DNA from: a virus
Lineage: Duplodnaviria; Caudoviricetes
DNA: 64,000 bases
IMG/VR virus record: IMGVR_UViG_3300009148_000002
Location: 1-64,000 of that record
Reading direction: 5' to 3' (one strand)
The translations under genes were made by a program, and so were the position numbers. The notes beneath the pieces were generated by a model. The model was not told the DNA's origin. It saw only the letters and a list, made by a program, of their open reading frames with translations, and ran no database searches. Positions 1 through 59,765 of this stretch are shown here, one piece after another (within the stretch, counting starts at the first letter, position 1; each line of letters begins with the position of its first letter).

Positions 1-424
1 CGCCACGCTCACGGCTCCGGCTCTAGTGAAGGCTGGCAACATCTACGTGAGGGAAAACGCCACGCTCACGGCTCCGGCTCTAGCTGAAGTGGCTGGCTAC
101 ATCTACGTGATGGAAAACGCCACGCTCACGGCTCCGGCTCTAGTGAAGGCTGGCAACATCTACGTGAGGGAAAACGCCACGCTCACGGCTCCGGCTCTAG
201 CTGAAGTGGCTGGCTACATCGACGTGATGAAAAACGCCACGCTCACGGCTCCGGCTCTAGTGAAGGCTGGCAACATCTACGTGATGGAAAACGCCACGCT
301 CACGGCTCCGGCTCTAGCTGAAGTGGCTGGCTACATCGACGTGATGAAAAACGCCACGCTCACGGCTCCGGCTCTAGTGAAGGCTGGCTACATCTACGTG
401 AGGGAAAACGCCACGCTCACGGCT
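1..424. repeat. Tandem repeat of alternating 57/60-bp units (117-bp higher-order period)
   Basis: CGCCACGCTCACGGCTCC starts at 1, 58, 118, 175, 235, 292, 352 and 409. Confidence 0.95.
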
Positions 425-448
425 CCTAAACTAAAACGCAAACTTTAA
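2..448 (+). CDS. 5'-truncated tandem-repeat (beta-solenoid/LRR-like) protein
   Basis: Frame is open from base 2; alternating 19/20-aa repeats ATLTAPAL(VK|AEV)AG(N|Y)I(Y|D)V(R|M)(E|K)N. Confidence 0.8.
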   Translation, partial: ATLTAPALVKAGNIYVRENATLTAPALAEVAGYIYVMENATLTAPALVKAGNIYVRENATLTAPALAEVAGYIDVMKNATLTAPALVKAGNIYVMENATLTAPALAEVAGYIDVMKNATLTAPALVKAGYIYVRENATLTAPKLKRKL

Positions 449-514
449 CGGCGGTTTTGATCGTCCGCCGTGCGGGGAGGGTACTAACCCGCGAATTTTA
501 ACTAAGAAATCCAG

Positions 515-715
515 ATGACAACTCATTGCGGAGAATGCGGATCAGAAAAGTGTAATCACGGAAACTGTCCAGAGTGCAATCCATGCCGCCATTGTTACGG
601 CGGCGACCGATCCAACAAATACTTTGGCGAAGATGACAAGCGGCAGCAAAAATCCGGGTCGGATATTGACCATTACCTTGACCGCCATCCACTGGCAGAA
701 TTTGGAGACGAATGA
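515..715 (+). CDS. Small Cys-rich hypothetical protein
   Basis: CxxC motifs; ATGA overlap with next ORF. Confidence 0.6.
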   Translation: MTTHCGECGSEKCNHGNCPECNPCRHCYGGDRSNKYFGEDDKRQQKSGSDIDHYLDRHPLAEFGDE

Positions 716-822
716 TAACCGACATCAAACCACCGCGCTTTGATTGGATCGGCGCAATCGTAATCGCTCTAGCCGTCGCGCCGTTCGCGTGGTTTGTTCT
801 GGCGCTGCTGCTCTCGTTGTGA
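712..822 (+). CDS. 36-aa single-TM peptide
   Basis: MITDIKPPRFDWIGAIVIALAVAPFAWFVLALLLSL; ATGA coupling; below ORF-track cutoff. Confidence 0.5.
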   Translation: MITDIKPPRFDWIGAIVIALAVAPFAWFVLALLLSL

Positions 823-871
823 GAGCGAAATATAGCTTGACGCGAAGTAAAACAACTGGCTTAATCGTCAA

Positions 872-1633
872 ATGAACAAAGAGCTTGAACTGATGCCGGC
901 GAATCGAAGTGCGCCAGTGGTCGCCATTGAGACTAAGAAACCACAGCGCAGCGTCGGCGACCTGCTAGAGATGGTGGTTGAGCGCGGACTAACAGCGGAG
1001 AATGTTGCTGCATTCAAAGACCTTGTTCAGCTACACCGCGAAGAAGTGAAGCTGAATGCCGAGCGGGAATTTGCATCCGCGTTTATTGTTTTGTTAAAGG
1101 AACTGCCAACGATTGTTGGTGTTAGGCCGATACCTGACAAGCATGGCAATGTGAAGTTCCGGTATGCCAACTTCGAGGACATAGACGAAATTGTGAGGCC
1201 GATTTGTCTAAGAAACGGGTTTAGCTACGCCTTCCGAGAAACCGGAATGGAAGCTGGCCGGGTAACGGTCACTATGACTTTGCAACACTCTGGAGGTCAC
1301 TCGCGGGAAATACCTTACACTGTTAGAATCGGATCAGGTCCACCGGGGGCCAACGAGTCTCAAGCGGACGGTTCTGGACACACCTACGGTAAGCGAGGGG
1401 CCATTGAGAGCGGGCTGTCGCTTCGCATCGTTGGAGCGCGTGAGGATGCCACGATGGAAGGTGATTTTATATCAAAAGAGCAAGCCTTTGAATTAGAGCG
1501 TCGGGTTGCTGAAACCAATTCCAACAAGGAAGCGTTCCTTAAATTCGCCGGCGCTGCTAAGTTTGAAGAAATCCGCGCTGGCAAATACGACACGCTTGAT
1601 TCATTTCTGCGCCGGAAAGAAAATCCAAAATGA
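872..1633 (+). CDS. erf: ERF-family ssDNA-annealing protein
   Basis: FRYANFEDIDEIVRPI, LQHSGGHS and GSGHTYGKRGAI match ERF core motifs; next to a YqaJ-like exonuclease. Confidence 0.8.
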   Translation: MNKELELMPANRSAPVVAIETKKPQRSVGDLLEMVVERGLTAENVAAFKDLVQLHREEVKLNAEREFASAFIVLLKELPTIVGVRPIPDKHGNVKFRYANFEDIDEIVRPICLRNGFSYAFRETGMEAGRVTVTMTLQHSGGHSREIPYTVRIGSGPPGANESQADGSGHTYGKRGAIESGLSLRIVGAREDATMEGDFISKEQAFELERRVAETNSNKEAFLKFAGAAKFEEIRAGKYDTLDSFLRRKENPK

Positions 1634-2319
1634 TTATCTCTCCGCACGCGCAAGGATCGGTCGAGTGGCAGCTAGCCCGCTCTGGCATTCCAACGGCTTC
1701 CGAATTCGACAACATCGTGACATCGAAAATGGTGTTGCGAGATAGTCAAATGCTGGAAACCTACTTGGCTCGCAAGCTGGCGGAAAAATGGCTTGGCGGG
1801 CCTGTGGCGAGTCTAAACGTGTTTGACGCCGACCAAGGTAAGATTTTAGAAGAAGAAGCTATTCCGTGGTACGAACTCGAATTTAGTGAAGCAATCCAGC
1901 GCGTTGGTCTAATCACGACCGATGACGGTCGCATTGGCTGCTCACCTGACGGGCTTCTTGGCGATAACTGTGGAGTAGAATTTAAGTGTCCGAAGATTGA
2001 AACGCATATCGGCTACTTGCTGGCCGGCGAGGTTCCTAAAGATTACCTGCCACAAGTGTATGGTGCGTTGCTGGTGACTGGTCGTCCATCGTGGAAGTTT
2101 GTCAGCTATCGCCGACGCTTGCCAGCGCTGGTGAAAGTCGTTGAGCGAGACGAGTCTATTCTAGCACGACTGCAAGACGCGCTGGATAAATTTCTGAAAA
2201 GGTTCGATGAGGGCTACGCCCGCCTCTGCGACATGAACGGTGGGCCACCTAAGCATTTAACGCCGCCGATTCCAAAACCCGAACAACACGAACCAAACGA
2301 CGACGTGCCGACTCCATGA
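1630..2319 (+). CDS. YqaJ/lambda-exonuclease-like viral recombinase
   Basis: QGSVEWQLARSGIPTASEF, GCSPDGL, VEFKCP, YLPQV motifs. Confidence 0.9.
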   Translation: MIISPHAQGSVEWQLARSGIPTASEFDNIVTSKMVLRDSQMLETYLARKLAEKWLGGPVASLNVFDADQGKILEEEAIPWYELEFSEAIQRVGLITTDDGRIGCSPDGLLGDNCGVEFKCPKIETHIGYLLAGEVPKDYLPQVYGALLVTGRPSWKFVSYRRRLPALVKVVERDESILARLQDALDKFLKRFDEGYARLCDMNGGPPKHLTPPIPKPEQHEPNDDVPTP

Positions 2320-2759
2320 ATATCGCCGACTCAATCAAGCAGGTTCGCCAGCGCATCGAGCGCGACGAAAAGATTATCGAAGCCCTGAACCTCATCGCCG
2401 AGCGGCTGCCATCGCTTGAATGTAGTCATTCGGTGCAAATAGCTGGCATTGACTTTGATCGTCCAACCCGCGAACAGACACTTGAAATCATTCGTGGTCT
2501 GGCCGCTGGCAAATGGGTGAAGTCGGTTAATTATGATGGCGACAAACTTAATTACGTGAACGACACGATGTTTGCTGGCTTGAGTCTTCGGATTTGGGCA
2601 TCACCGCCGCCACCGTCATGCCGGATTATTGAGATCGAGGAAGACGTTCCTGAACAAATCGTTGCCGCACATAAGAAAAAGGTGCGCAAGCTCGTTTGCA
2701 GCGAGGTCGGTCACGAGCCTCCAAAGCTAGTCGAGGAAATGGTTGAGGCTGCACCATGA
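2316..2759 (+). CDS. Hypothetical protein
   Basis: ATGA-coupled ORF in early operon. Confidence 0.7.
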   Translation: MNIADSIKQVRQRIERDEKIIEALNLIAERLPSLECSHSVQIAGIDFDRPTREQTLEIIRGLAAGKWVKSVNYDGDKLNYVNDTMFAGLSLRIWASPPPPSCRIIEIEEDVPEQIVAAHKKKVRKLVCSEVGHEPPKLVEEMVEAAP

Positions 2760-2932
2760 AAATGATTGTCAAAACCGGAAAGGTTATTTTCCAGAGCCAA
2801 GACGGGAAAATAGAAATCGAAGTCAAGGCGTCCAAAGATGGATTAGAAGTGACATCGGACTCGCAATTGTTCATGGGGCGACGCGGGAGAAATCACGTAA
2901 CAATCCAATGGCTTAACGGAACGGAAAAATGA
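2756..2932 (+). CDS. 58-aa hypothetical protein
   Basis: MKMIVKTGKVIFQSQDGK...; ATGA overlaps on both sides; not in ORF track. Confidence 0.65.
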   Translation: MKMIVKTGKVIFQSQDGKIEIEVKASKDGLEVTSDSQLFMGRRGRNHVTIQWLNGTEK

Positions 2933-3198
2933 AAATAGAAAACCAATTGCGGATAATGGCTCGCGAAGACAACTGCTGCGTGCGGCTAGCGGACGGCGAG
3001 AAAATATTCATTGGCTCAATCACGATTGGCCAAGATGAGTGCGGCGATTTTATTAACGCTTTGTCCAAGTGTCTGTACAAATTAAAGAAGGCAAAACAAG
3101 CTGTTCCAGCAGACGCTTCTGGCGCGACGATTCCGGCAGATTCAACACCGCCAGAATTGTTGCAGGCAGCGTTGGTTGAAAAAGCGAATCTCACATGA
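2929..3198 (+). CDS. Hypothetical protein
   Basis: ATGA-coupled ORF. Confidence 0.65.
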   Translation: MKIENQLRIMAREDNCCVRLADGEKIFIGSITIGQDECGDFINALSKCLYKLKKAKQAVPADASGATIPADSTPPELLQAALVEKANLT

Positions 3199-3521
3199 CC
3201 CTGCTCGAATTCTTGGACAGGCTGCCACCGAGAGCGTGCCGATTGCTGGCGCGGGTGAATGGCCGTGCGATGACGGCTAGGCAGATTGGCAAGGCTGGCG
3301 GGTTGCATCCGTCCACGGTGCATATCCTATCCGAGATGGACAGCTTTGCACACGTTACTATAAGCACAGCGTCAAAGTATCTCGTCGGCTGCGGGATCGA
3401 CGTTTTTCATCTGCGTCGCCAGTGGGAGTTCATCAAGCGGCAGGAGAAAAACAAGCGCGGTATGGCGCACATTAGGCGAGCGAAGCGGCCTAGTTATTTC
3501 AAGAGATTGGCTAAAACATGA
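3195..3521 (+). CDS. Basic, possibly HTH DNA-binding protein
   Basis: MTARQIGKAGGLHPSTVHIL is HTH-like; directly upstream of the integrase. Confidence 0.5.
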   Translation: MTLLEFLDRLPPRACRLLARVNGRAMTARQIGKAGGLHPSTVHILSEMDSFAHVTISTASKYLVGCGIDVFHLRRQWEFIKRQEKNKRGMAHIRRAKRPSYFKRLAKT

Positions 3522-4465
3522 ACGAGCTAGTCCCATACGTCTCACCGCCGCAGTTGGCCAAAGCGAACACGCTGGCGAACCGCGTCGGTGAATACCTCAA
3601 AGACTTGCAGGATCGTAAGTGTTCTGAGTTCTCGGTTCGCAACATGAGGGTTGTGTTGGAACACTTCGAGTTGTTCTGTGCGGGCCGGCACGTTATTCCG
3701 CAAACGGTTCGCGAATGGTGCGACGCGGTTGGCACGTCTGGCCGAAAGCCTGGCACGGTTGACTTGTATCAGCGGCACTTGAAGTCATTCTTGATTTGGA
3801 TGGACAGGCGCGACTATATCACGGGCTTGCGTGAGCTAGTGCGCGTGTTCAATCGAGTCACAATTCCGAAACGCCCGGTGACAACTATCACGCTGGAAGA
3901 ATACGAAAGGCTACGCGATGCTTCCGTTGGCACACCGATGTATTACCTTGTTGTGATGGGTTATTGGACCGGCTTGCGTGGCGTTGGTGCCTGCCTACTC
4001 CAGTGGGTCAATGTCGATTTAGAGCGTTTTCACATTCGGGTTGTTGAACGGAAGGTTTCCAAGTGGGGCATCACATCGACCCCGCCGATCCCGCCCGGTG
4101 GTGAGCTTCATGCGATGTTGGTTGAGATGCAGAGGAATCCATCTGACGAGTGGCCTGGCCGCGCCTACGTGCACCCGTACTGGGCCAATGAATACATGAA
4201 GGGCTACTTGCCTGATTCTAAATTTAGCGCCCTGTGTAAAAAGGTTGGAGTAAAGAAAAGCTATCACGATTTTCGGCGCGGTTATACGTCAACGCTTCTC
4301 GACGCTGGCGTATCGCCGGCTCTGGTTGCTAAAATGACTGGACATTCAAACATTCAGGAATTGATGACGTATTACAAAGCAGACGAAGCCGCCATGCACG
4401 CGGCCATGAACTCAGCTTTCGCGAAACAGAAACAACAAACAGGAAGCGTCACGCTAACACAATGA
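3518..4465 (+). CDS. Tyrosine recombinase (phage integrase-like)
   Basis: TGLRG (R), HDFRR (HxxR), GHSN (H) and LMTYY (Y); lacks the IntI-specific insertion. Confidence 0.9.
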   Translation: MNELVPYVSPPQLAKANTLANRVGEYLKDLQDRKCSEFSVRNMRVVLEHFELFCAGRHVIPQTVREWCDAVGTSGRKPGTVDLYQRHLKSFLIWMDRRDYITGLRELVRVFNRVTIPKRPVTTITLEEYERLRDASVGTPMYYLVVMGYWTGLRGVGACLLQWVNVDLERFHIRVVERKVSKWGITSTPPIPPGGELHAMLVEMQRNPSDEWPGRAYVHPYWANEYMKGYLPDSKFSALCKKVGVKKSYHDFRRGYTSTLLDAGVSPALVAKMTGHSNIQELMTYYKADEAAMHAAMNSAFAKQKQQTGSVTLTQ

Positions 4466-4671
4466 GCGCAAAAGCAATGACTGCACAACAGGAAAAGCAT
4501 ATCGTGGATTTATTAAATATCGTGCAACTCTACAGCCATCTCGGCAAACAAATCGAGCTTGGTCAGTGGTCCGGAGCGGTGGTGATCTCCGAGGCGCTGT
4601 CGCAGAACATCCGTCAGCAGGTTGTGGTGCAATTCGAGAACGAGGAAACCGAGATTTCGATGCCGGCATGA
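4462..4671 (+). CDS. Hypothetical protein
   Basis: ATGA-coupled ORF. Confidence 0.6.
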   Translation: MSAKAMTAQQEKHIVDLLNIVQLYSHLGKQIELGQWSGAVVISEALSQNIRQQVVVQFENEETEISMPA

Positions 4672-5039
4672 AACCAACCACCTACAACCCGAAGATCGTG
4701 ATTGCTTACTTCAGGGCGTGCGGCGTGCCGTTGCCGCTGGTTGAATACCCGTTTAACAAGCCAGAAAGCCGTCACAGGTTTGATTTTGCGTGGCCATTTT
4801 CTTCTCCCACGCCGCTCGCCTTGGAAATCAACGGAGCGATTCACGGGATCGGAAAGCCGTGCCCTGTTTGCCATCGTCGCCAGACGGGCGGGCATACATC
4901 TGGAACAGGCGCGAGGCGAGACATGGACAAAATGAACTTCGCAGCGGCCAAGGGCTACAGGGTTATCTACTGCGAACCAAGAGAACTGATGACTCAGAAA
5001 ACCGTTGACCTAATCAAGCGGTGCCTTGGGATTGGATAA
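4668..5039 (+). CDS. PD-(D/E)xK nuclease, Vsr/DUF559-like
   Basis: RHRFDFAWP...LALEING...RDMDKMNFAAAKGYRVI; start moved to ATG 4668; stop lies in the attC R' core. Confidence 0.75.
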   Translation: MKPTTYNPKIVIAYFRACGVPLPLVEYPFNKPESRHRFDFAWPFSSPTPLALEINGAIHGIGKPCPVCHRRQTGGHTSGTGARRDMDKMNFAAAKGYRVIYCEPRELMTQKTVDLIKRCLGIG

Positions 5040-5166
5040 CGACGAGGCCAGCAATGCGTCTGGTCGAACCTAAAACAACCGTGAATATGCTGACGAATCT
5101 CGAACAAGAAAAGAGCCAGTCCGAAGCCAATCGTAAAGACGCATTGGCTGCGCCGACTGGTTCGGA
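5034..5166 (-). other. attC site (133 bp)
   Basis: Minus strand: TCCGAAC-CAGTC-GGC[G]CAG[C]CAATGCGTCT...AGACGCATTGCTGGCC-TCGTC-GTTATCC; brackets are extrahelical bases. Confidence 0.85.
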
Positions 5167-5458
5167 AAAAACGTGGACAGACGAACAACTCAACTGGCTG
5201 CTCCGAGAAATCGAACTCAACGCCAAGCTCAAAGAGGCTGATAACAAAAAGCTCCTATGGCTGGCGATGAACACCGCCCCGTGGAAGTCGCTCGATGTGA
5301 TGGGCGTCGAAGCGGAAATCTTTGGTGAGATAGAAAACCGCCTCTATCCAGAATACGACGGCGAAACTGTGACGTTCGAGGAATGGGGATGGCGAACACC
5401 AACCGGCGACATACGATATTTGCCGAACGTCCGCATGAGCGAAGGCGCGGACAAGTGA
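5054..5458 (+). CDS. Cassette-borne hypothetical protein, antisense to its attC
   Basis: ATG lies inside attC 5034-5166 and the stop inside attC 5422-5515; cassette cores GTTCGGAAAAA (5160) and ATTTGCCGAAC (5418) match 9/11 as inverted repeats. Confidence 0.7.
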   Translation: MRLVEPKTTVNMLTNLEQEKSQSEANRKDALAAPTGSEKTWTDEQLNWLLREIELNAKLKEADNKKLLWLAMNTAPWKSLDVMGVEAEIFGEIENRLYPEYDGETVTFEEWGWRTPTGDIRYLPNVRMSEGADK

Positions 5459-5515
5459 AGGTCGAATTTGCGAGAGGCGTGCGCCCGCGCCTTTCGCTCC
5501 ATGCGGTGGTTGGGC
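5422..5515 (-). other. attC site (94 bp)
   Basis: Minus strand: GCCCAAC-CACCGCAT[G]GAGCGAA[A]GGCGCGG...CCGCGCCTTCGCTCATGCGGAC-GTTCGGC. Confidence 0.9.
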
Positions 5516-5540
5516 GGCACGGTCGAACTGAAAACACACT

Positions 5541-5699
5541 ATGAAAACAGGACAATGCTACTGGCGCTTTCGAGGCGAGAAAGCCTACCGCTATGGCTAC
5601 GCAACCGAAGCCGGACAAGGACTCTATCGCATGGGACTGTGGAACGGCGACACAAGCCACGGGCCAATCGTTGACCCGCACGACATCGAGGTGCGCTAG
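5541..5699 (+). CDS. 52-aa cassette-borne protein (first cassette, antisense)
   Basis: MKTGQCYWRFRGEKAYRYG...IEVR fills the cassette bounded by the perfect 11-bp inverted repeat GTTGGGCGGCA (5509) / TGCCGCCCAAC (5700). Confidence 0.7.
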   Translation: MKTGQCYWRFRGEKAYRYGYATEAGQGLYRMGLWNGDTSHGPIVDPHDIEVR

Positions 5700-5703
5700 T
5701 GCC

Positions 5704-5720
5704 GCCCAACAAGGATTATC
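5704..5720 (-). other. attI-like site
   Basis: Minus strand GATAATCCTT-GTTGGGC, 18 bp from the intI start; no attC hairpin follows; position is canonical for attI. Confidence 0.7.
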
Positions 5721-5738
5721 AAGCTCCAGTCGTGTAAT

Positions 5739-6692
5739 ATGAAAATCACAATCGCCATCAGTAATATGCGCGACATTATCAGGCGCAAGCATTTGTCTAT
5801 TGAGACTGAGCGTTCTTACTGCCAGTGGCTTGATAGGTTCTCTCGTTTTGTGGTAGAGCGGTGCCGCGACGGTAAGCCTGAACAAAAGATGGAAGCTTTT
5901 CTGACCCAACTCGCCAGACAGGATGTTTCGGCATCTACTCAAAACCAAGCTTTCTGCGCATTGCTATTTTTCTACAGAGAAGTGCTTAAATTGGAAATCG
6001 GAAAGGTGGATTCGTTGCGCGCTAAGAAGCCTGTGCATCTGCGTTATGCGCCGGAGGTTCACGATGTTAGGGCTTTGATCGCTAGGATTCAGGACGTAGG
6101 CGGATACCCGACGCGGCTGATCGTGAAACTGATTTACGGGTGCGGGATGCGCGTCACTGAGCCGCTGAATCTGCGCGTGAAGGATGTTCTCTTGTCCGAG
6201 TCGAAGCTGATTTTGCGCGGTGCCAAGGGTGGAAAGGACAGGTTTGTTTCAATCCCGTGTTCACTGGCCGGCGAGCTAGCGGCGCAACTCACTTTGGCGA
6301 AGTCCATCGGCGAACGCGACCGCTTGAATCGTCTGCCAGTCGCCTTGCCGGGCTTGCTGGTAACGAAATATCCGCATTGGCAATTCTTGGAAAAGTGGGC
6401 ATGGCTCTTTCCGGCGCACACGTCTTGCGTCCACCCGCGCACGGGAGTCACCGTGAGGTGGCGATGCCATGAGGCGAATGTGCAACGGTGCGTGCGCTCC
6501 GCCGCAAGGCCGATGGGCCTCGACATCACGCCACACCACCTGCGCCACGCCTACGCGACGCATTGCTTGAATGGCGGACAGAATCCGCGCGCGATTCAAC
6601 AAGCAATGGGACACTCACAACTGGAGACTACGATGGGGTATCTACACACAGAAGCATTAAGTGTTAGGAGTCCTATTGACGCAATATTATGA
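5739..6692 (+). CDS. intI: Integron integrase
   Basis: IIRRKHLSIETERSYCQW N-terminus; catalytic R, K, HxxR, H, Y (GMRVTE, AKGGKDR, HHLRH, GHS, GY); IntI-specific insertion ALPGLLVTKYP...WAWLFPA...HPRTG...HEANVQR. Confidence 0.93.
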   Translation: MKITIAISNMRDIIRRKHLSIETERSYCQWLDRFSRFVVERCRDGKPEQKMEAFLTQLARQDVSASTQNQAFCALLFFYREVLKLEIGKVDSLRAKKPVHLRYAPEVHDVRALIARIQDVGGYPTRLIVKLIYGCGMRVTEPLNLRVKDVLLSESKLILRGAKGGKDRFVSIPCSLAGELAAQLTLAKSIGERDRLNRLPVALPGLLVTKYPHWQFLEKWAWLFPAHTSCVHPRTGVTVRWRCHEANVQRCVRSAARPMGLDITPHHLRHAYATHCLNGGQNPRAIQQAMGHSQLETTMGYLHTEALSVRSPIDAIL

Positions 6693-7060
6693 ACGACGAA
6701 TCGACAACCCAGCCTCCAGTAGCGCCAAAGCCAAGGCGTCCACGCCAGCCAAAACACATCGTCATCGACGACACGGCGACACTCGAAAAATACGACGTGA
6801 TTCAGACATTCGGTACGAACGCGGGAATGCTTGGAATCGTCGTCGAGGTGCGCGAGTCCGACGTGAAGTGTTTTCATAAAACTCTGTCAGGCGAAGGCAA
6901 TCACTTCACCGTCGCGAAGGATAAATGCAAGAAGATCGGCACGAGCTTCATCCGCTGGAAGTCAATCGACAGCGGGCAGAAGCCATCAATTGGCCAGAGC
7001 AATGGCCAGCCGAGGATGCTTGCAAAAGCGCCAGCCTTCCCGCCCGATGTGGTTTCGTAG
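6689..7060 (+). CDS. Hypothetical protein
   Basis: ATGA-coupled to intI; C-terminus may run through a decayed attC. Confidence 0.7.
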   Translation: MNDESTTQPPVAPKPRRPRQPKHIVIDDTATLEKYDVIQTFGTNAGMLGIVVEVRESDVKCFHKTLSGEGNHFTVAKDKCKKIGTSFIRWKSIDSGQKPSIGQSNGQPRMLAKAPAFPPDVVS

Positions 7061-7065
7061 CCAAT

Positions 7066-7524
7066 ATGGAAAACAACGATAAGGCGCTGAGGTTGAAAAT
7101 TGCGGAGCTAGAGGCCGCTCGCTCTCAAGCTCTTGAACTGCTGGAGCAGCTATTACCAATAACATGGTCGGAAGATTGGGATGCTGATTTCGTGCGTGAC
7201 AAGCTGGAATGCGCCATCAGGTTTTGTGGTGGCATGGTTGAGAAGCCGAACATAACTGCCAGTCGCAAGGCGTCCGCAACTGCCAAGCGAAGCGGCAGTT
7301 GCGCTCCAGTGAATGGTTCTGAGGCGTCAAAGTGGAGATCCTGTTCTCGCTGGCCTGTCACTCTCGGCTTCCTCGAAAACCAACTGACGACCGACACGCA
7401 CGATACCCGCGAGCAAGCGGACGCCGTGTGCCAAATGCTCAAACGCGATGGCCTCGGCGGTGAAGGCCGAATCTTTCCAGAAGAAACATGGATTGAGGAG
7501 GTCAAGCCTCAGAAAAATTCTTAA
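7066..7524 (+). CDS. Hypothetical protein, probable in-frame fusion across an attC
   Basis: Start reassigned to ATG 7066; PNITASRK...PVNGS is encoded by attC 7245-7322. Confidence 0.65.
   Translation: MENNDKALRLKIAELEAARSQALELLEQLLPITWSEDWDADFVRDKLECAIRFCGGMVEKPNITASRKASATAKRSGSCAPVNGSEASKWRSCSRWPVTLGFLENQLTTDTHDTREQADAVCQMLKRDGLGGEGRIFPEETWIEEVKPQKNS
7245..7322 (-). other. Degenerate attC site
   Basis: Minus strand TCAGAAC-CATTC-ACT[G]GAGCGCAACTGCC...GGCAGTTGCG...AGT-TAT-GTTCGGC; L'-side pairing is imperfect. Confidence 0.6.
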
Positions 7525-7526
7525 AC
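7509..7526 (-). other. attI-like site with mutated core
   Basis: Plus strand AAA-AATTC-TTAAAC; GCCTCAGAAA (7506) matches the inverse of GTTCTGAGGC (7316) at 9/10. Confidence 0.5.
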
Positions 7527-7600
7527 CGACTCTGTAGCTTATCCATGACCACGGTTCAGACCATGAAAACCCCGCGCAAAGAAAAAGCCATCCGAATCAC

Positions 7601-7690
7601 CTGCAACCGCAGAAGTCAGCGAGGCCGGGCCGCTGACGCAACCAAAACATGAAGGCGAATCCCGGCCTTCGCTGGACTGAATTGTTCGAC
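7601..7690 (-). other. attC site (90 bp)
   Basis: Minus strand GTCGAAC-AATTC-AGT[C]CAGCGA[A]GGCCGGG...CCCGGCCTCGCTGACT-TCTGCG-GTTGCAG. Confidence 0.85.
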
Positions 7691-7692
7691 TT

Positions 7693-7917
7693 ATGGCTAT
7701 ACTGAAAGGCATCGGAAAACCCGGATCAGGGGCATACCTGCCTGTGAAACTGTATCGTGAATGGATCGCCAAAGTGCGCCGTCACGATCAACTCGAAGCG
7801 GCGCTTGAACGCATCGCAAAGGGTGAAACCGAAGTGCCCGGCCTCGCGCCGGAGTTTTACGGCCACGCCAAAGCCATCGCCGAGAAGGCTCTACGTGTTA
7901 AGTCGAACAATGATTAA
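7693..7917 (+). CDS. 74-aa cassette-borne protein (antisense)
   Basis: Bounded by the perfect 10-bp inverted repeat GTTCGACTTA (7684) / TAAGTCGAAC (7899). Confidence 0.7.
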   Translation: MAILKGIGKPGSGAYLPVKLYREWIAKVRRHDQLEAALERIAKGETEVPGLAPEFYGHAKAIAEKALRVKSNND

Positions 7918-7919
7918 AC
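7902..7919 (-). other. attI-like site
   Basis: Plus strand AAC-AATGA-TTAAAC has the same spacing as AAC-AAGGA-TTATC next to intI. Confidence 0.55.
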
Positions 7920-7980
7920 GAACGCCTGTTCGTTTATTTAAGAAAACAATGCCAACCTTTAGACATGCGGGTGATTTGAC

Positions 7981-8766
7981 GTGAGCGCAGCCTTATCTCC
8001 AATCACGACCAACATTCTTCGCGCTTCCTACGAGCACAAGAAGTTCGCCTTCGGCAACCCGCAGGCGACACAGATCATGTGCCTGATTGGAAGCTGCCGC
8101 ATTGTGCCAATGCTGAACTTCATGCGCGTTTACAACGCGATGCACGGACATCCGTTTGAACTGCTATGTTTCAATCCCGTTGAAATGTGGGACGGTCCAG
8201 GGTGTGAAGTATCGGCTGGCGTGAACAGGATTCTGCAAGGCTTCAAATTCGGCAAGGTGGATTACCTCGTCTGTGAGCACGTCCAGTACTGCGGCGTGCT
8301 AAACACCGTGCGATCCTCAGCGGAGAACGTCTTTGACTCGCTCGCGTGCTCGCCAGGCATGGAGATTCGTTTGCCCAACTGGAATAATCTTCACGTGTTC
8401 GATGCCGAGACGGCCCTGAACGACAAGACGGGTTACGCCAAGCTGGGTCACGCCGAGCGCGTTGCATATCTGCGAGAACAGACGGCCATCCATAAGGCTC
8501 GGTTCCTGTCGCATTGCCGAGAAAGCAGCTTCCAGGAGCTTGAGTCATGGGTTGAGGAACGCTGGCTGACGACGCGGTTGGGTTGGTCGAGTTCTCATCC
8601 GAGCCATCCGCTGATCTGGAAGATGATTGAATGCGTGGCTGGAAAGATTGGCTTGACAATCTCTACTGAAATAGCCAACCATCCACTGTGCGCAATCGAC
8701 ATCTACAAGTCCACGGGCATACCATTGACTAGTGTTGACTACGAATCGAATGGCTGGAAATTCTGA
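7981..8766 (+). CDS. Hypothetical polysaccharide-modifying protein (WcbI-like?)
   Basis: IGSCRIVP N-terminal motif; opens the glycan-enzyme cluster. Confidence 0.4.
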   Translation: MSAALSPITTNILRASYEHKKFAFGNPQATQIMCLIGSCRIVPMLNFMRVYNAMHGHPFELLCFNPVEMWDGPGCEVSAGVNRILQGFKFGKVDYLVCEHVQYCGVLNTVRSSAENVFDSLACSPGMEIRLPNWNNLHVFDAETALNDKTGYAKLGHAERVAYLREQTAIHKARFLSHCRESSFQELESWVEERWLTTRLGWSSSHPSHPLIWKMIECVAGKIGLTISTEIANHPLCAIDIYKSTGIPLTSVDYESNGWKF

Positions 8767-8768
8767 AT

Positions 8769-9083
8769 ATGAATACATGCGATAAGGCGGCGGTCTGCGA
8801 GGAATTGTTAGGCGGATTCGTCGCCACACAAAGGCAGTATCCAAGCGGCCTAGAATATCTGGAAGTGACGCATGGACAAACCAGAATCGGAACGTGCTGC
8901 ATCCAACCTTCTGGTGGCTTCATTGTCATGGGCAAGCGCAAGCCCGTGCCGACGATACGTGCGGCTGTGCTGCAAATGATCGGCGACGAACTGAACAAGT
9001 GCCGCAAGGAAGAAATGCGGTGGCGGAAAAAGCTGACGCACTTCACATCCACTAATCCTCCAAACAAACGAACACCAACATGA
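8769..9083 (+). CDS. Hypothetical protein
   Basis: Operonic ORF. Confidence 0.6.
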   Translation: MNTCDKAAVCEELLGGFVATQRQYPSGLEYLEVTHGQTRIGTCCIQPSGGFIVMGKRKPVPTIRAAVLQMIGDELNKCRKEEMRWRKKLTHFTSTNPPNKRTPT

Positions 9084-9568
9084 TCGAAACGTTAAATTAT
9101 GGCAGCCACCTGCCAGCGCTAATGGCCTGCACGGCTGTATGCGGTGGCCCAGTATTGGAGATCGGGTGCGGAAATTTTTCGACGCCGTGCCTTCACTCGC
9201 TGTGCGCCGTTCTTGGACTTCCTCTCGTCACGACCGAGTTTGATGATAGCTGGCGCAATCAGTTTACGAGCTACATCACCCCGACGCACCAAGTCTTGAA
9301 GCAAACGGACGCACTGTTGAAGGAGTTAGCCACACGGCAATGGGGACTCGTGCTTGTGGATGACCAACCTCAGACTCGAATTGATCGGCTCAATATGTTC
9401 TTCGATTCAGCGCGGTTCGTCCTATTCCATGATTTTAACTTCCCCGACTACAAGGAGAATCTGGAGACGTGGGTTTCGGCCCGCCAATGCTACCATCGGG
9501 TTTACACGCGGGTCGGCCCTTGGACGCTCGGCGTGTCCAAAACCCACCCGATACCAGAGTTCGATTAA
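9080..9568 (+). CDS. Class I SAM-dependent methyltransferase-like protein
   Basis: VLEIGCG motif I; LVLVDD; LFHD. Confidence 0.7.
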   Translation: MIETLNYGSHLPALMACTAVCGGPVLEIGCGNFSTPCLHSLCAVLGLPLVTTEFDDSWRNQFTSYITPTHQVLKQTDALLKELATRQWGLVLVDDQPQTRIDRLNMFFDSARFVLFHDFNFPDYKENLETWVSARQCYHRVYTRVGPWTLGVSKTHPIPEFD

Positions 9569-9571
9569 CCC

Positions 9572-10036
9572 ATGAGTAAAACACTCCCCATTTTAAACGG
9601 TTCATTCGCTATAATCGACGATGATGATTTCGAGCGAGCGATCAAGTTTAGGTGGTATCTTGATAGCAAGGGGTATGCAAAGCGGAACATCAGAAGGAGC
9701 GATGGATATAAGACTATTCAATTTCTCAGCAGGTTCATTATGGATGCCGCTGTCGGTATTCAAGTCGATCACATCAACGGAAACAAGTTAGACAACCGCA
9801 AATCCGAACTGCGATTATGCACGCATCAGCAAAACAACTGAAATAAAGGAAAACAGCGTAATAATAAATCTGGATTCAAAGGCGTAACGTGGAGCAGGCG
9901 GGCGTCGAAGTGGAAGGCTACAATACAGCTTAATGGTAAAAGTATTCATCTCGGCTATTTCACCGACATCCTAAAAGCTGCCGCCGCTTACGCCGCCGCA
10001 TCCCGAAAATACCACGGAGAATTTGCGAGAACTTAA
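9572..10036 (+). pseudogene. HNH-AP2 homing endonuclease with in-frame TGA
   Basis: VDHINGNKLDNRKSELR HNH, TGA at 9839-9841, then the same frame gives an AP2 domain (SGFKGVTW...IHLGYF...AAAAY...YHGEFA) to TAA 10036. Confidence 0.85.
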
Positions 10037-10039
10037 AAT

Positions 10040-10810
10040 ATGAACATCGACAGAGTTTTACTGGTGTGGGATGGGAACGAATTTTATCGTGGATTTTATG
10101 AGATGCACCAAAGGCTCTGGCCAAGGCTCGGCATCAAGACCGGCCTCGTCTTCGTCTCCAACGGCAGCAACGCACACGCCATTCCAAAGACGGGCGACGT
10201 GCGCGTAGTCGAGGATCGCAGCAAGGTCCCGTTTACGCCACCTCCAGGAAGAAACTGGCGTGCGACTATGGGGATAATTCACGGGCCGACGCTGTTCCCC
10301 GGCGAGGTTGTCATGGTCACAGGTTTAGACCAATTTCCCGCGAGCCGAATGTTCATCGACGCAGTGGCGGAAGTCCCTGACAACGAACTGGCGACCGCTA
10401 TAGGAAGCCGCGACCACGTTACCACAAACCATATTTTAGCCCATCACAACGTATGGTCGAAGATCATGGCTCCTGCTCCGATGGACTTCACCGAGCTAAT
10501 CGAATGGGCATGGGCGAAGGGCCTGAACATTGATGGCCACCGGGACGCCAACCAAAAGCCAATCGCAATTGGATGGGGAATAGATGAAGTGCTATTCGCG
10601 CAACTTGTGCGCGAGTCGGGCGTCACCGTCCGAACACTGTTCAAAGACCCTTGGGAGCAATGGCTGAACCGGGTGCTCGGAATCACACAGATAGTGCCAG
10701 ACCCAAAGAAGCTGGCCGAAGGATTTTACTCGGAGCTTCACATCAGACTGCCCATGACGGAACTAGACAGGAAAACATTCAACACGTTGCTGGAAATTCT
10801 CGAACCATGA
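10040..10810 (+). CDS. Putative glycosyltransferase-like protein
   Basis: TGLDQFP (DxD-like) and WGIDEVLF; cluster context. Confidence 0.45.
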   Translation: MNIDRVLLVWDGNEFYRGFYEMHQRLWPRLGIKTGLVFVSNGSNAHAIPKTGDVRVVEDRSKVPFTPPPGRNWRATMGIIHGPTLFPGEVVMVTGLDQFPASRMFIDAVAEVPDNELATAIGSRDHVTTNHILAHHNVWSKIMAPAPMDFTELIEWAWAKGLNIDGHRDANQKPIAIGWGIDEVLFAQLVRESGVTVRTLFKDPWEQWLNRVLGITQIVPDPKKLAEGFYSELHIRLPMTELDRKTFNTLLEILEP

Positions 10811-11001
10811 AAGTGAAAAGCGATTGCTGTCCAAAATGCGGAAAGCAAATGAACTTGGTAATGATGGCTCTCAAGCAACCCGATGGATGTGTTGACGTAT
10901 TGGAATCCTCATCGGTTGGCGCAGTCACATATTGTACCGAATGCGGCACACAATTGATGATAAACGACGAGAAGTCATTCGCAATTGTCGAATACCTGTG
11001 A
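10807..11001 (+). CDS. Zn-ribbon protein
   Basis: CPKC...CTEC; ATGA/GTGA overlaps. Confidence 0.65.
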   Translation: MKVKSDCCPKCGKQMNLVMMALKQPDGCVDVLESSSVGAVTYCTECGTQLMINDEKSFAIVEYL

Positions 11002-11792
11002 GCAACGTTGGCACCATCGTTTACATTCCTCCGCCACGTTACGGCCACGGTGAGGCGTTCCTGACAAATCTCAGGGCGTGGAAAACGAAATATCCACTTG
11101 TCACGTTCTCAGACCACGCCGAATGGACACCGGATCGCGTCATCCAAAGCCCTGATCTAATCAAAACCAAGCAGCGGCCTTGGGCTGTGAACAACTTCGT
11201 GTTTCTGATGGCGCTGTCGATTGCGGAAGACAGTGGATTCACGGATTTCCTATATCTTGAAGAAGATTGCCGCGTGCATGGCCACGAATGGGACGAGAGA
11301 ATAATTGGTGAATATCGTCGCTGGCCGCAAGCCGTTGTGGGCGGCAGTCCGGTGTGCTGGAATTCTATGTCAGCCGGCCCCGTGATGCTCGCTGGGTTTC
11401 AAATCTACGCGGCGAGTTACGTCAGGAAATGCAAACTACCTGTGCCGATATACGGCCTTCAAATTCCAAACCGACCGCGAGTGGAGCGGTTCACACTTTA
11501 CCCAAACGGAGCGATTGCCGTTTACAACGTCGCGTTTTTGAGAGACTTGTTCAAACAAGGCAGCATGGCTAAGCAAGCTTTAGATCGTGGCGCGTTTGAT
11601 ATGGAAGTGGGTTGGGAGTTGGTAAACAAATTCGGACTTGGGTTGTTTAACAAATGCGCGTGGCTGTCTTCGGCTTTTTCGGGCTATGGTGACAACGTGC
11701 TCAATTACAAACAGCGCTGCGCACGGCTGATTGACGGGACGTTTGCCGCCGTGCATCAGATTAAAACTGATGATACATTGCTGCCCGCATGA
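10998..11792 (+). CDS. Putative GT-A-fold glycosyltransferase
   Basis: FLYLEEDCRV DxD-like motif; GTG start at 10998. Confidence 0.55.
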   Translation: MSNVGTIVYIPPPRYGHGEAFLTNLRAWKTKYPLVTFSDHAEWTPDRVIQSPDLIKTKQRPWAVNNFVFLMALSIAEDSGFTDFLYLEEDCRVHGHEWDERIIGEYRRWPQAVVGGSPVCWNSMSAGPVMLAGFQIYAASYVRKCKLPVPIYGLQIPNRPRVERFTLYPNGAIAVYNVAFLRDLFKQGSMAKQALDRGAFDMEVGWELVNKFGLGLFNKCAWLSSAFSGYGDNVLNYKQRCARLIDGTFAAVHQIKTDDTLLPA

Positions 11793-12442
11793 AAACCAAA
11801 CTTCTAAACAACGGCATCATGGTTTTGGACGCTGACTCTCACATTAGTAAGTGGGTAGAGGAAACCGGCAAGTTGGACCACGACGAAGGTATAAAGAAAA
11901 TCTGTTCGCTTATCAAGCCGGGAGACGTTGTGATTGATGTTGGAGCAAACATTGGTAGTCATACAACGGCCTATTTGAAGGCTGTGGGAGATGGCTTAGT
12001 TTACGCAATTGAACCAAACAAAGACCCTCTGGCATGTCTGATTCATAATTGCCCACGGGCTGTAATTATTTCCGGCGCGGCGATGGATTTTTTCGGTCTG
12101 ATTCGGCTTCAGAGGTCCGTTAATGTGGGAGCAACATGCTTAGATAGTCTGCCGGGTTATGACGCAATCTGCTTTCCGATTTCTGATGTTGTCCATGCCT
12201 CTAAAGTAGCCCTGATTAAATTTGACGTTGAGGGTTGCGAAAGGTTCGCCATCCGTGGGGCTTCTCGCATTATCAGTCGCGACCATCCAGTAATGATCGT
12301 CGAGGTTGCGCCCGGACATTTGGCTAGGTATGGCGTAACTACTGAAGCCCTATTGAGGACCATCGAAGATTTAGGATACAAAACAGAACCGCTGCACGCT
12401 TTCGACCCACATCAATACGACCTGCTCTGCACACCAAAATGA
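11789..12442 (+). CDS. FkbM-family methyltransferase
   Basis: VIDVGANIGSHT, AIEPN, LIKFDVEGCE. Confidence 0.92.
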   Translation: MKTKLLNNGIMVLDADSHISKWVEETGKLDHDEGIKKICSLIKPGDVVIDVGANIGSHTTAYLKAVGDGLVYAIEPNKDPLACLIHNCPRAVIISGAAMDFFGLIRLQRSVNVGATCLDSLPGYDAICFPISDVVHASKVALIKFDVEGCERFAIRGASRIISRDHPVMIVEVAPGHLARYGVTTEALLRTIEDLGYKTEPLHAFDPHQYDLLCTPK

Positions 12443-13176
12443 AAACCTCCATCCTGTGCGTTTCGTATCGCGGCGATTTCGACTGGCTGCCGTATTTGCT
12501 GAAGTCATATCGCCAATTCTGCTCAGGGTTTCACGAGTTTGTGATGTCCGTGCCGCAAGCCGATGAATCGCTGTTGAGGCAAATGGACCTAGCTGGCGTG
12601 CGCGTAGTTGTGCGCCATCCAAAGATGACTGGCTATTTCGACCAGCAACTAGAGAAGTGCTGCGCCGATCTCTTGTGTCCAGAGGCCGATTGCGTTTGCC
12701 ATGTGGATTCCGATTGTGTATTTCTGCGTCCAACTACGCCGGATTCTTTATTCGTGGCCAACAAGCCGTTCTTGCTCATCACTCCATTCGCCGAGCTTGG
12801 AAGCGCCGTGCCGTGGAAACCAAGCACCGAACTGGCTCTTGGAATTCCGGTCGAGTTTGAAGGAATGCGTCGGCATGGGTTAACTTATTGGAGAGACACC
12901 TATCAATTGCTGAGAGAGAGAATCGAGACACTGCACGGCGTTGGATTGGACACGTATCTATCGACAAAGCGCAATTCGGCGGACCACACCAAGCTGTTCT
13001 CTGAGTTCAATTGCCTGACAGGGGCGGCGTTTGCGTGGCAGCACGACAAGTATCACTGGATCGACACAAGTAAAGAGACGTTTCCGCCGCCGATTGTTCG
13101 GCAGTTCTGGTCGCACCATAGGGCCAGTCATCCAGACGTTCAAAAAGAGATCGCTGACATTTTGAAAACGGCATAA
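12439..13176 (+). CDS. Putative glycosyltransferase (DUF6492-like)
   Basis: CHVDSDCVF DxD motif; GYFDQQLEK; FSEFN. Confidence 0.6.
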   Translation: MKTSILCVSYRGDFDWLPYLLKSYRQFCSGFHEFVMSVPQADESLLRQMDLAGVRVVVRHPKMTGYFDQQLEKCCADLLCPEADCVCHVDSDCVFLRPTTPDSLFVANKPFLLITPFAELGSAVPWKPSTELALGIPVEFEGMRRHGLTYWRDTYQLLRERIETLHGVGLDTYLSTKRNSADHTKLFSEFNCLTGAAFAWQHDKYHWIDTSKETFPPPIVRQFWSHHRASHPDVQKEIADILKTA

Positions 13177-13352
13177 TTTATGAACAAAAACCTAATACTG
13201 GTTGGAGTTCGGAAGTGGGCAGATGACGCAAGTTTGCCCAGCCCTGCAACGTGGGTGAGAAATCAAGACATTGCGCGAGTCGGCGGCGCTCGGCCAGCTT
13301 TGTCTTGAATAATGAATCGCCGGGCGTGCGTTGCCACGCCCGGCAAACCTTT

Positions 13353-13730
13353 ATGAGCGCGAACAACGGCAACAGCAAAGCACCAAACTTCCAAGCCCTG
13401 CAACATTTCGTCGGGCAGTTGGTCGAGCAGCAAAAGAAAAGTCAGTTTTCGCTTGGGCCGATTCAGCAGCCGAAGCCGCTCATCATTCGCAAGTGTTTGG
13501 TCTGCGGATCGGGCGACAAGCTTCGCCGAACGAAGACTCCGAACGGTTCTGTCTTTCTGTGTCCGGGTTGCCGGACGGATTTGGAATCTGGCGGCACAGC
13601 GTTCGTGTGTCGAGATGGCCGCTCGCTAATGGCCAAGTCCGGCGCTCCGATTAAGGACAGCATGATCGGCAAGATAGTCGAGGTTTCGGTGGCCACGATG
13701 GATGAGCTTGTAAAGAAAGCTGCAATATGA
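13353..13730 (+). CDS. Zn-finger hypothetical protein
   Basis: CLVC...CPGC; start at ATG 13353. Confidence 0.6.
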   Translation: MSANNGNSKAPNFQALQHFVGQLVEQQKKSQFSLGPIQQPKPLIIRKCLVCGSGDKLRRTKTPNGSVFLCPGCRTDLESGGTAFVCRDGRSLMAKSGAPIKDSMIGKIVEVSVATMDELVKKAAI

Positions 13731-14008
13731 AATCCGAGACACCTAGGACTGATTCAGAAACTCCGTGCTTTGGAGACACTCCGGTATCGAGAGACTTCGC
13801 ACGGCAGTTGGAGCGAGAGTTGCACCACGCAAACCATCTTCTCGATTGGGCAGAGAGTATAATTTGTAACGGAATGCCGATGAAGCATTGCTCGCAATCA
13901 GATTGGGATGGATTTGTTCGTAAGTGGAGAGACGCAAAGCACGGCGTCATCACGCCATCGGCCTCACCAGATATTTCGGCTCCAGCTTCCGCCACTCCGA
14001 CGTGCTAA
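13727..14008 (+). CDS. Hypothetical phage protein
   Basis: ETPRTD...FARQLEREL motif common in phage early genes. Confidence 0.65.
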   Translation: MKSETPRTDSETPCFGDTPVSRDFARQLERELHHANHLLDWAESIICNGMPMKHCSQSDWDGFVRKWRDAKHGVITPSASPDISAPASATPTC

Positions 14009-59353: not shown

Positions 59354-59422
59354 CGGTTTTATATGCAGACAGTTACAGAGAGTTCTTTTTCATTTTTACG
59401 GGCTGTTGGTGGGCTTGTCGTT

Positions 59423-59659
59423 CTACAGCACCCGCTCGCTGTGTTTGATTTCGACGCATCGGATTTTGGGTTTTTCCAGCCAGTCCTTAAAGAACCATCT
59501 GGCATATTCAAGTGCCTGCGATTGGTTGTCGCGCTGCCCGACGAGGCATTCCCATTTGGCGTTCGGTTTCTGCCACTCGACCGCGTATGCTGTAGAACAC
59601 TTCATGGAGCGAACGGCGACCCGCGCCGTTCGAGAGTTGGTCTTGGATTTCTTGCTCAT
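59423..59659 (-). CDS. Cassette-borne hypothetical protein (antisense to its attC)
   Basis: ATG lies in the attC loop; cassette cores GTTCTACAGCA (59420) / TGCTGTAGAAC (59588) are a perfect 11-bp inverted repeat. Confidence 0.7.
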   Translation of the reverse strand: MSKKSKTNSRTARVAVRSMKCSTAYAVEWQKPNAKWECLVGQRDNQSQALEYARWFFKDWLEKPKIRCVEIKHSERVL

Positions 59660-59695
59660 ACATTTTTCTCGCCGTCGCTCATGGCGGCGTTGTAA
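59592..59695 (+). other. attC site (104 bp)
   Basis: GTAGAAC-ACTTC-ATG[G]AGCGA[A]CGGCGA...TCGCCGTCGCTCAT-GGCGGC-GTTGTAA. Confidence 0.88.
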
Positions 59696-59765
59696 AACTT
59701 CATTGACAAAGGCTATCACCGTCGGCGGCGGAGTCAAACATTTTTCGCGCAAATGATTTTGTTGC

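Follow-up and report, generated by a model that had tools for sequence, protein, structure and literature searches.

We describe a set of gene cassettes in a phage genome (Duplodnaviria; Caudoviricetes), together with the neighbouring integrase gene intI. The DNA analysed, referred to below as the window, comprises positions 1 to 64,000 of the IMG/VR virus record IMGVR_UViG_3300009148_000002; the full record is 74,992 bp long and rated 100% complete, and the window is its first 64 kb. The window very probably carries a phage-borne integron which has the canonical recombination geometry but in which the cassettes are built backwards. This layout is common to the whole family of related phage elements, and the backwards-cassette phage integron is a new variant of the integron.

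Integrons are described as devices consisting of a promoter and a cassette array, the enforced orientation of the cassettes causing their genes to be read outward from the Pc promoter. The phage elements break this textbook rule: their integrase clade keeps the chemistry and geometry of recombination, but the genes are stored on the other strand, in a phage operon that ends with intI. On the + strand, a cassette would run from the C of the R′ box through the attC hairpin and the R″ box to the gene, and end at the next RYYYAA. The attC would therefore be 5′ of its gene on the coding strand, with the gene directed towards attI and intI.

attC sites, integrase and attI

Using the integrase, we retrieved 26 related viral loci (given L numbers below), which were oriented with intI on the + strand. 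When the window was compared with these loci by BLAST, the only conserved sequences besides intI were elements of 80–130 nt at differing positions. Seven of the conserved elements could be aligned and had the order RYYYAAC, spacer, long stem, loop, stem, spacer, GTTRRRY, with compensatory changes at 8 of the 17 predicted pairs. Covariance models were built from the seven aligned elements (R1, the narrower model) and from 49 hits (R2). R2 identified 102 sites in 27 sources (the window plus the 26 viral loci), 100 on the + strand and two on the − strand; the viral arrays upstream of intI reach 13 sites.

Over 93 distinct sites, the 14 pairs of the L helix were 97.8% paired, with changes on both sides at all 14 and G-U pairs nearly absent. 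The AAC/GTT ends of the R helix were invariant, and its four variable positions were paired only in roughly half of the sites, the pattern that hybrid R boxes produced by recombination should show. The elements are thus imperfect palindromes with R and L boxes, an unpaired spacer and extrahelical bases on the R″–L″ arm, as attC sites are.

Four attC hairpins are present in the window, three on the + strand and one on the − strand, and none was found in the last 11 kb of the genome. The R2 hits span 5031–5169, 5419–5518 and 7599–7693 (+) and 59589–59698 (−). Folded alone as DNA, 5419–5518 (z −4.0) and 7599–7693 (z −2.8) both give the expected bulged hairpin. Repeat finding gave three perfect 12–13-nt inverted repeats, two of which flank small open reading frames (ORFs) on the + strand; by our own estimate, about 0.1 such perfect pairs would be expected by chance in 3.7 kb. 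Homogenisation of the hairpins within a phage, which could have placed one gene beside different hairpins, was considered and ruled out, since identity was 0.531 within a locus and 0.527 between loci. In Vibrio, by contrast, the Vibrio cholerae repeat (VCR) sites are homogenised.

The best NCBIfam match of the intI product is TIGR02249 (247 bits, profile positions 2–314 of 315). It aligns with the VchIntIA structure 2a3v (E 1.6e-40), ungapped through the IntI-specific insertion, and the catalytic R, K, H-R-H (His-x-x-Arg, His) and Y are all matched. The protein is therefore an IntI-family tyrosine recombinase with the additional domain and the RKHRH-Y residues, and from its sequence it is probably active in recombination in the window phage. 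The attI adjoins intI and acts as an insertion point in the related locus L024, where a duplicated cassette has been inserted (see below). Its junction, AA↓C (the arrow marks the crossover or cassette border) followed by AAGGATT, is kept in 18 loci, 27–56 nt ahead of the intI ATG, and homology to L002 and L009 begins at 5701–5704.

It is highly unlikely that the hairpins are instead intergenic RNA or DNA elements (terminators, translation-control elements or repetitive extragenic palindromic (REP)-like sequences) and that the integrase is used otherwise, for example for prophage integration. A second tyrosine recombinase, of the ordinary phage type, is indeed encoded at 3518–4465, and the hairpins lie in the mRNA leader, often with a start codon, so that an added role in translation is plausible. 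Such elements would not, however, account for core sites of the form RYYYAAC and GTTRRRY, for inverted repeats of 9–12 nt flanking the genes of most cassettes, or for the half-paired variable box positions and the scarcity of G-U pairs. Furthermore, the same model matches bacterial integron attC sites near intI, a cassette has been exactly duplicated at attI, and the integrase, of integron type, carries the IntI-specific insertion.

It is more conceivable, though still unlikely, that the integron of the family is real but that the copy in this phage is a relic which no longer recombines, its hairpins being kept only for gene starts and stops. The array is short, with two cassettes at attI and two solitary ones, and site 5031–5169 has a poorly paired R box (a 6-nt repeat only) and an alternative fold. 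Against this, intI is intact with its catalytic residues, attI fits the family consensus, and cassettes 1, 3 and 4 keep perfect repeats of 11–13 nt; in a related phage there is a duplication that differs at only 1 base in 251.

Recombination polarity and coding strand

Two bases bulge from the stem on its 3′ arm, as read on the + strand. One is a G, replaced in some sites by C or A, three pairs away from the spacer (about position 16 from the 3′ end); the other is a T, a further 6–7 bases in (about position 23). In attC sites, the extrahelical bases are on the R″–L″ arm, with a conserved G in L″ and a T 6–8 nt away (G16, T20 and T24 in VCR); IntI binds the bottom strand and the crossover is in the R′ box (Bouvier et al. 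2009, PMC2727003). As the bulge positions match this definition, the + strand is taken to be the attC bottom strand, with the expected crossover at AA↓C of the left box. The layout of intI, attI and array is then canonical.

Three observations bear on polarity independently of the bulge rule. First, perfect inverted core repeats of 7–14 nt, linking the right box plus 2–7 bases to the next left box or to the sequence ahead of intI, were found in 73 of 82 neighbouring pairs. Second, the attI-proximal gene has a core repeat and no hairpin on its right, and adjoins attI directly in 18 loci, and the leftmost hairpins mostly have no repeat partner upstream. Third, one L024 cassette is present twice, at 3566–3819 and 5717–5970, with 250/251 positions identical. 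The second copy is at attI, and the identity runs from the AAC of the left box to CTAAC. These observations indicate that the mobile unit is a hairpin with the gene on its right, inserted at attI. The cassettes are thus bounded by core sites, have their own complementary R′ and R″ boxes and move as units, and the L024 duplication directly records the recent copying of a cassette in a related phage.

The same data make it very improbable that the polarity is reversed, i.e. that the crossover is at G↓TT of the right box, the bulge rule misleads, and the cassettes have the normal order of gene then attC. Inverted core repeats around the genes would suit either polarity, and over longer times both boxes have been points of reassortment between gene modules and hairpins. 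However, the duplicated L024 unit is a hairpin plus its right-hand gene, and the attI copy of this unit is not followed by a hairpin. The direct junction of gene and attI in the 18 loci and the unpartnered leftmost hairpins point the same way. In addition, R1 matches arrays adjoining intI in bacterial genome contigs (up to 1.7 Mb), where the site polarity relative to intI is the same and the genes are normally oriented.

Open-frame length failed to separate the two strands, with many intervals open on both; because length was uninformative, we used codon scoring, Pfam matches and homologues instead. A codon log-odds model was trained on the long genes of the phage and the intI genes of related loci, and in a control with 240-nt chunks of known genes, 104 of its 111 calls were correct. 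It placed 74/75 cassette gene modules on the + strand, the attC bottom strand, and one on the − strand. Both sites on the − strand carry − strand modules, giving reversal in 76/77 cases. Among the longest ORFs, 10 Pfam families were found in 75 + strand ORFs and none in 74 − strand ORFs. The original prediction, made from the window sequence, held that the ORFs lie opposite to the attC top strand and are co-directional with intI, and proposed a tabulation of ORF against attC orientation in related phage loci as a check. The codon count, with the bulges on the + strand 3′ arm and the Pfam result, bears the prediction out. The same antisense polarity had been proposed at 7693 and, mirrored, at 59659, and both places agree with it.

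The bacterial arrays detected with R1 served as a control. Here, Pfam families were found in none of 32 ORFs on the strand of the model, compared to nine families among 33 ORFs on the other strand, and codon scoring agreed. As the bacterial arrays give the opposite result with the same model, the reversal belongs to the phage elements and not to the polarity call. It also follows that the recombination mechanism does not dictate how a gene is oriented relative to attC, since a reversed phage clade with canonical geometry exists.

In an ordinary integron, the real genes would be on the − strand, read from an outward promoter near attI and intI, and the + strand ORFs would be shadow frames. This is scarcely credible here. 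Many intervals do have open frames on both strands, and there is a weak sigma-70-like match (TTCATA, 17 nt, GATAAT; 9/12) on the − strand at 5743–5715, the usual position of Pc. However, a promoter and terminator scan of 1–14000, which was uninformative for the + strand of 4400–8100, gave 12 promoters where 9.5 would be expected by chance. The match at 5743–5715 is no better than chance, and its −10 hexamer is on a part of attI that varies between loci. The absence of Pfam families from the − strand ORFs and the codon scores also argue against this arrangement, as do the 27 conserved homologues of the protein encoded on the + strand at 5054–5458.

The families found on the + strand were N6_N4_Mtase (4e-54), MT-A70 (7e-34), Dam (2e-24) and Mom (1e-13), together with HNH, HNH_5, PAPS_reduct, HTH_3, Methyltransf_11 and QSregVF_b. 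The recognisable cargo is mostly DNA-modification genes, which suggests a role in counter-defence against restriction. With three kinds of DNA methyltransferase, Mom, HNH and a PAPS-reductase domain, it also suggests that phage counter-defence genes are swapped by means of an integron. Defence genes have recently been reported in bacterial integrons, and the phage cargo mirrors them.

Gene ends, module exchange and the window cassettes

The features of the window are collected in Table 1. In the first cassette of the array (cassette 2), the ATG at 5054 is within the 5′ (L′) arm of attC 5034–5166, and the TGA at 5456–5458 is within the loop of attC 5422–5515; the coordinates confirm what had been predicted for this ORF. 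As the frame contains no ATG, GTG or TTG codon between 3 nt before and 90 nt after the G of the R″ box, the gene must start inside its own attC, at 5054 or at 5087 in the loop.

Table 1. Positions of the predicted integron features in the window and of near-identical hairpins in related loci
Feature	Position	Strand	Remarks
Last backbone gene ahead of array	4671..5039	+	122 aa, PHROG 503
attC of cassette 2	5034..5166	+ (= bottom strand)	R2 46.3 bits, E 4e-10
Cassette 2	5040..5427	+	388 bp; hairpin + gene module, C of AA↓C to next AA↓C
Cassette 2 gene	5054..5458	+	134 aa; alternative in-frame start 5087 in loop
attC of cassette 1	5422..5515	+	R1 71.9, R2 67 bits; −29.6 kcal/mol DNA fold
Cassette 1, adjoining attI	5428..5709	+	282 bp
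Cassette 1 gene	5541..5699	+	52 aa; start 32 nt past R″ box
attI	5710..5738	+	CAAGGATTATCAAGCTCCAGTCGTGTAAT; spans cassette border to intI start codon
intI, integron-type tyrosine recombinase	5739..6692	+	317 aa
attC of cassette 3, downstream of intI	7601..7690	+	R1 80.8, R2 71.6 bits
Cassette 3	7607..7907	+	301 bp; 0.9 kb downstream of intI
Cassette 3 gene	7693..7917	+	74 aa; ATG 9 nt past R″ box
Solitary cassette 4, mirror orientation	59421..59689	−	269 bp; attC 59695–59592, R2 48.9 bits
Cassette 4 gene	59423..59659	−	78 aa; ATG in attC loop; TAG 2 bases ahead of border
Near-identical hairpins, first set	L003:2053-2170, L009:3876-3993		95–97% identity
Near-identical hairpins, second set	L009:4543-4665, L016:4803-4925, L004:3488-3610		95–97% identity

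Across the family, an in-frame hairpin ATG could be reached without a stop in 44/68 main frames, compared to 21/136 other frames (Fisher p = 2.6e-12). The claim that cassette genes start inside their own attC therefore holds as a possibility for about two thirds of them, in which the hairpin ATG is open to the gene; the remainder would start just past the R″ box. The frames would end in three ways: with a TAA that closes the cassette (CTAA↓C), a few bases earlier, or 2–30 codons into the next hairpin or attI. Among 68 single-gene cassettes, the stop was 7–179 nt past the border in 43, a TAA forming the last three bases in 15 and earlier in 10. The neighbour determines the C-terminal tail of any frame that ends inside the following hairpin or attI. 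Each rearrangement had been proposed to rewrite the C-termini; this fits the 43 frames that run past the border, but ‘each’ was an overstatement in view of the others. A ‘stop trap’, in which the hairpins evolved to end incoming frames, was also considered and rejected: 147/204 frames (∼72%) were closed in the hairpin, which by our own estimate is about the expectation from base composition.

The 5054 protein has 27 homologues beside the window's own copy, with a shared core from about SAKxWTDE to IRYLPN. A comparison of their C-termini across contexts, proposed earlier as a further check, gave the predicted outcome: the proteins are conserved as far as IRYLPN, the N codon straddles the AA↓C border, and the tails beyond are unrelated in sequence and length. 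The N-terminal 0–45 residues, encoded by the hairpin, vary too. One homologue, P0020 (190 aa, from a 9.3-kb Logan contig), departs from the core just ahead of the border, with VRYS in place of IRYLPN, and continues for ∼105 more residues. Structure prediction for the 5054 protein was poor (predicted local distance difference test (pLDDT) score 57), and none of the window's own cassette proteins had a Pfam match.

The module containing gene 5054 (GTT to GCCGAA) is 80–93% identical in four contexts, including L108, L109 and L111, and the identity collapses at both boxes. The hairpins flanking it have identities of 0.54–0.61, like random pairs (background 0.53 ± 0.07). Conversely, hairpins that are 95–97% identical are found between unrelated genes in L003, L009, L016 and L004 (Table 1), with the identity running exactly from AAC to GTT. 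In a search of viral contigs, the 5054 module was nowhere found joined directly to attI.

Several observations weigh against an integron with canonical geometry and backwards cassettes. The linkage of hairpin and gene is seen only in the recent L024 duplication and is lost over longer times; the reassorted modules imply exchange at the R″ box also, which the canonical mechanism, using the bottom strand only, does not predict. Folded alone, 5031–5169 (z −3.1) and 59589–59698 (z −1.9) prefer other local hairpins, so that their assignment comes from the model score and homologous contexts and not from their own fold. The TIGR02249 score of intI, 247, is slightly under the curated cut-off of 265. 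The codon model was trained on the same phage and on related intI genes, and Pfam matches were found in only about one tenth of the cassette proteins. Lastly, the N-terminal extensions encoded by the hairpins are not conserved, and some of the annotated starts inside hairpins may therefore be unused.

Most simply, the reassortment would reflect recombination that occasionally involves the other strand, at the R″ box; template switching at the hairpins is an alternative source. For wild-type VCR, Bouvier et al. (2009, PMC2727003) measured recombination of the other strand at ∼1e-4 of the rate for the bottom strand. A more tentative idea, which we consider possible but rather doubtful, is that both core sites of an attC may be working crossovers, AA↓C on one strand and G↓TT on the other. 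In that case, there would be two libraries shuffled independently, one of gene modules and one of hairpin modules, each exchange giving a gene a new leader or N-terminus and a new C-terminal tail, and backwards cassettes could have arisen from normal bacterial ones when a gene module flipped between its own inverted core sites. When the 75 phage cassette proteins were compared with the bacterial loci by tblastn, only hairpin-derived matches and no shared cargo were found.

The array follows a tightly packed + strand block of early genes, which includes ERF and a YqaJ-type exonuclease; a large terminase, virion proteins and a tail-fibre match are encoded elsewhere in the phage. The stop codon of the last backbone gene (TAA, 5037–5039) falls within the first core site, GGATAAC (5034–5040), intI starts 29 nt on from attI, and intI overlaps the next gene by ATGA. 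It is this gene packing (the stop in the core site, the spacing of attI and intI, and the ATGA overlap) that suggests transcription by phage read-through. The cassette genes would then be readable only along with the upstream early genes, an outward Pc would be unneeded, and intI would be the next gene after the newest cassette. At the start of the window, an open-ended ORF (2–448) comprises ∼7 tandem copies of a ∼60-nt unit (protein repeat NATLTAPALVKAGNIYV), and every copy also scores as a terminator-like hairpin on the − strand.

The attC of cassette 2 has R′ GGATAAC (5034–5040), arms at ∼5044–5061 and ∼5137–5155 that include a perfect 10-nt pair (5052–5061/5137–5146), a long loop, and R″ GTTCGGA (5160–5166). 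For the core site at 5034–5040, an anchored inverted-repeat partner of more than 6 nt was not found upstream. Gene 5054 has a codon score of 0.33 on the + strand. The attC of cassette 1 (R′ GCCGAAC, 5422–5428; R″ GTTGGGC, 5509–5515) has T and C bulged on the 3′ arm and is 76% identical to L009:1990-2091. Cassette 1 has a perfect 12-nt inverted repeat, GTTGGGCGGCAC at 5509–5520 and GTGCCGCCCAAC at 5699–5710. Its gene, the attI-proximal one, ends at its own TAG, 10 nt short of the border.

Cassette 3 is located at a second attI-like site, which starts at 7908 with CAATGATTAAAC, and its right junction, AA↓C followed by AATGATTA, resembles the attI of L024 and L012. Its attC (R′ CTGCAAC, 7601–7607; R″ GTTCGAC, 7684–7690) is 80–83% identical to hairpins of L002 and L024, and there is a perfect 13-nt inverted repeat (7681–7693/7899–7911). 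The gene stops 10 nt past the border, using DNA from outside the cassette for a border-spanning AAC codon, two further codons and the TAA at 7915–7917. If the cassette were absent, the same TAA would close a short frame from upstream, which would then read ITCN↓ND. The second attI-like sequence (7908–7940, beginning CAATGATTAAACGAAC) lies 1.2 kb beyond the intI stop and contains a single cassette. A T-run hairpin at 7915–7936, after this sequence, looks like a terminator, and hairpins downstream of intI are also present in L005, L017 and L027. The third of the perfect inverted repeats, 12 nt long, lies between the 5′ arm of attC 7601–7690 (GCGAGGCCGGGC, 7619–7630) and the interior of the gene (GCCCGGCCTCGC, 7836–7847), with a spacing of 205 nt, the same as that of the core-site repeat.

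For cassette 4, 59420–59430 is the 11-nt inverted-repeat partner of the − strand R″ box. Its gene (59659–59423) scores 0.21 on the − strand and ≤0.02 on the + strand in the codon test, and is followed by another − strand gene (59353–59096). A motif, GGTCGAAC, with an A-rich stretch (GGTCGAACYTRAAAAC) recurs at 5521–5528, 5063–5069 and 7902–7908. It is located just past the R″ box of site 5422–5515 and in the loop of 5034–5166, and in L009 and L016 it comes after GTTGGGC. Either a leader element or the relic of a core site could account for it.

Comparison with known integrons

In an integrase tree made with FastTree, the viral integrases and those of three genome-bin contigs form one clade (support 0.78); two of the bin contigs were tested and both have + strand cassettes. 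The clade is sister to L031–L035, mostly Verrucomicrobiota genome bins, which include the normally oriented 13-site array L032. The position of the clade beside normally oriented Verrucomicrobiota integrases suggests a host in that phylum and a bacterial origin of the phage element. The chromosomal integrons of Verrucomicrobiota and other soil and freshwater phyla (L032, L037, L058) have IntI proteins in sister or near clades (nearest 50–58% identity), attC sites recognised by the same covariance model and the same polarity relative to intI. They differ from the phage elements in having genes on the normal strand and a within-array hairpin identity of 0.59–0.73, compared to 0.53 in the phages.

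The phage element shares with canonical integrons (class 1; Vibrio, with VchIntIA and VCR) the IntI-specific insertion, an attI at the 5′ end of intI, and R/L-box attC hairpins with an unpaired spacer and a bulged G and T on the bottom-strand R″–L″ arm. The AA↓C crossover (G↓TT on the top strand), the cassette-specific inverted core repeats and insertion at attI are also common to both. In contrast to canonical integrons, the genes are on the attC bottom strand, with attC 5′ of the gene, and run towards intI. There is no room for an outward Pc, and attI is only ∼30–55 bp and abuts the intI start codon; starts are in hairpins and stops in the R′ box or the next hairpin, and the whole element is within a phage early operon. 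Promoterless genes upstream of attC on the top strand, transcribed away from intI from Pc, were thus not found, and this gene orientation is what makes the phage element an integron variant. The starts and tails taken from neighbouring sites are an unusual form of modular protein ends, and the arrays are a natural test system for attC hairpins acting in messenger leaders and coding regions. Pipelines which expect genes on the attC top strand would probably mis-annotate them.

Full-text searches of the literature yielded no account of reversed cassettes in a phage integrase clade. The section consulted in the report by Qi, Rajabal, Ghaly, Tetu and Gillings (2023, PMC9892861) describes bacterial integron fragments and integrase-less clusters in 21 phages, calls cassettes in one direction typical of bacterial arrays, and includes assays in which phage attC sites were recombined by IntI1. 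Those phages resemble the one studied here in having attC sites or integron parts and DNA methyltransferases in cassettes. The phage-specific integrase clade and the reversed genes set the present phage apart, neither being described in that section.

The inverted integron-integrase group (Treponema type; Cury et al. 2016, PMC4889954) also has intI and cassette genes that are co-directional. There, however, intI is flipped relative to attC and the genes are normal, whereas in the phage it is the genes that are flipped. The intI–attC arrangement of the phage is canonical, with the attC top strand running opposite to intI and the array on the 5′ side of intI. One of the bacterial loci, L063, has the inverted-integrase layout.

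A cluster of attC sites lacking integron-integrases (CALIN) has at least two attC sites and no nearby intI. In the window, the main array has intI, and the sites at 7601–7690 and 59592–59695 are single. One related locus, L109:756-3089 (Logan contig SRR33639318_3664), has three attC cassettes immediately preceded by a Gad2-family gene (PF26128) and RecT. As the 10 kb fetched gave no intI call, it looks like a CALIN, an integrase-less array, in a phage.

Large chromosomal integrons contain a minority of reverse-oriented toxin-antitoxin cassettes, which have their own promoters. These and the phage cassettes are alike in being antisense to the array; in the phages, reversal is the rule (76/77) and the genes look promoterless.

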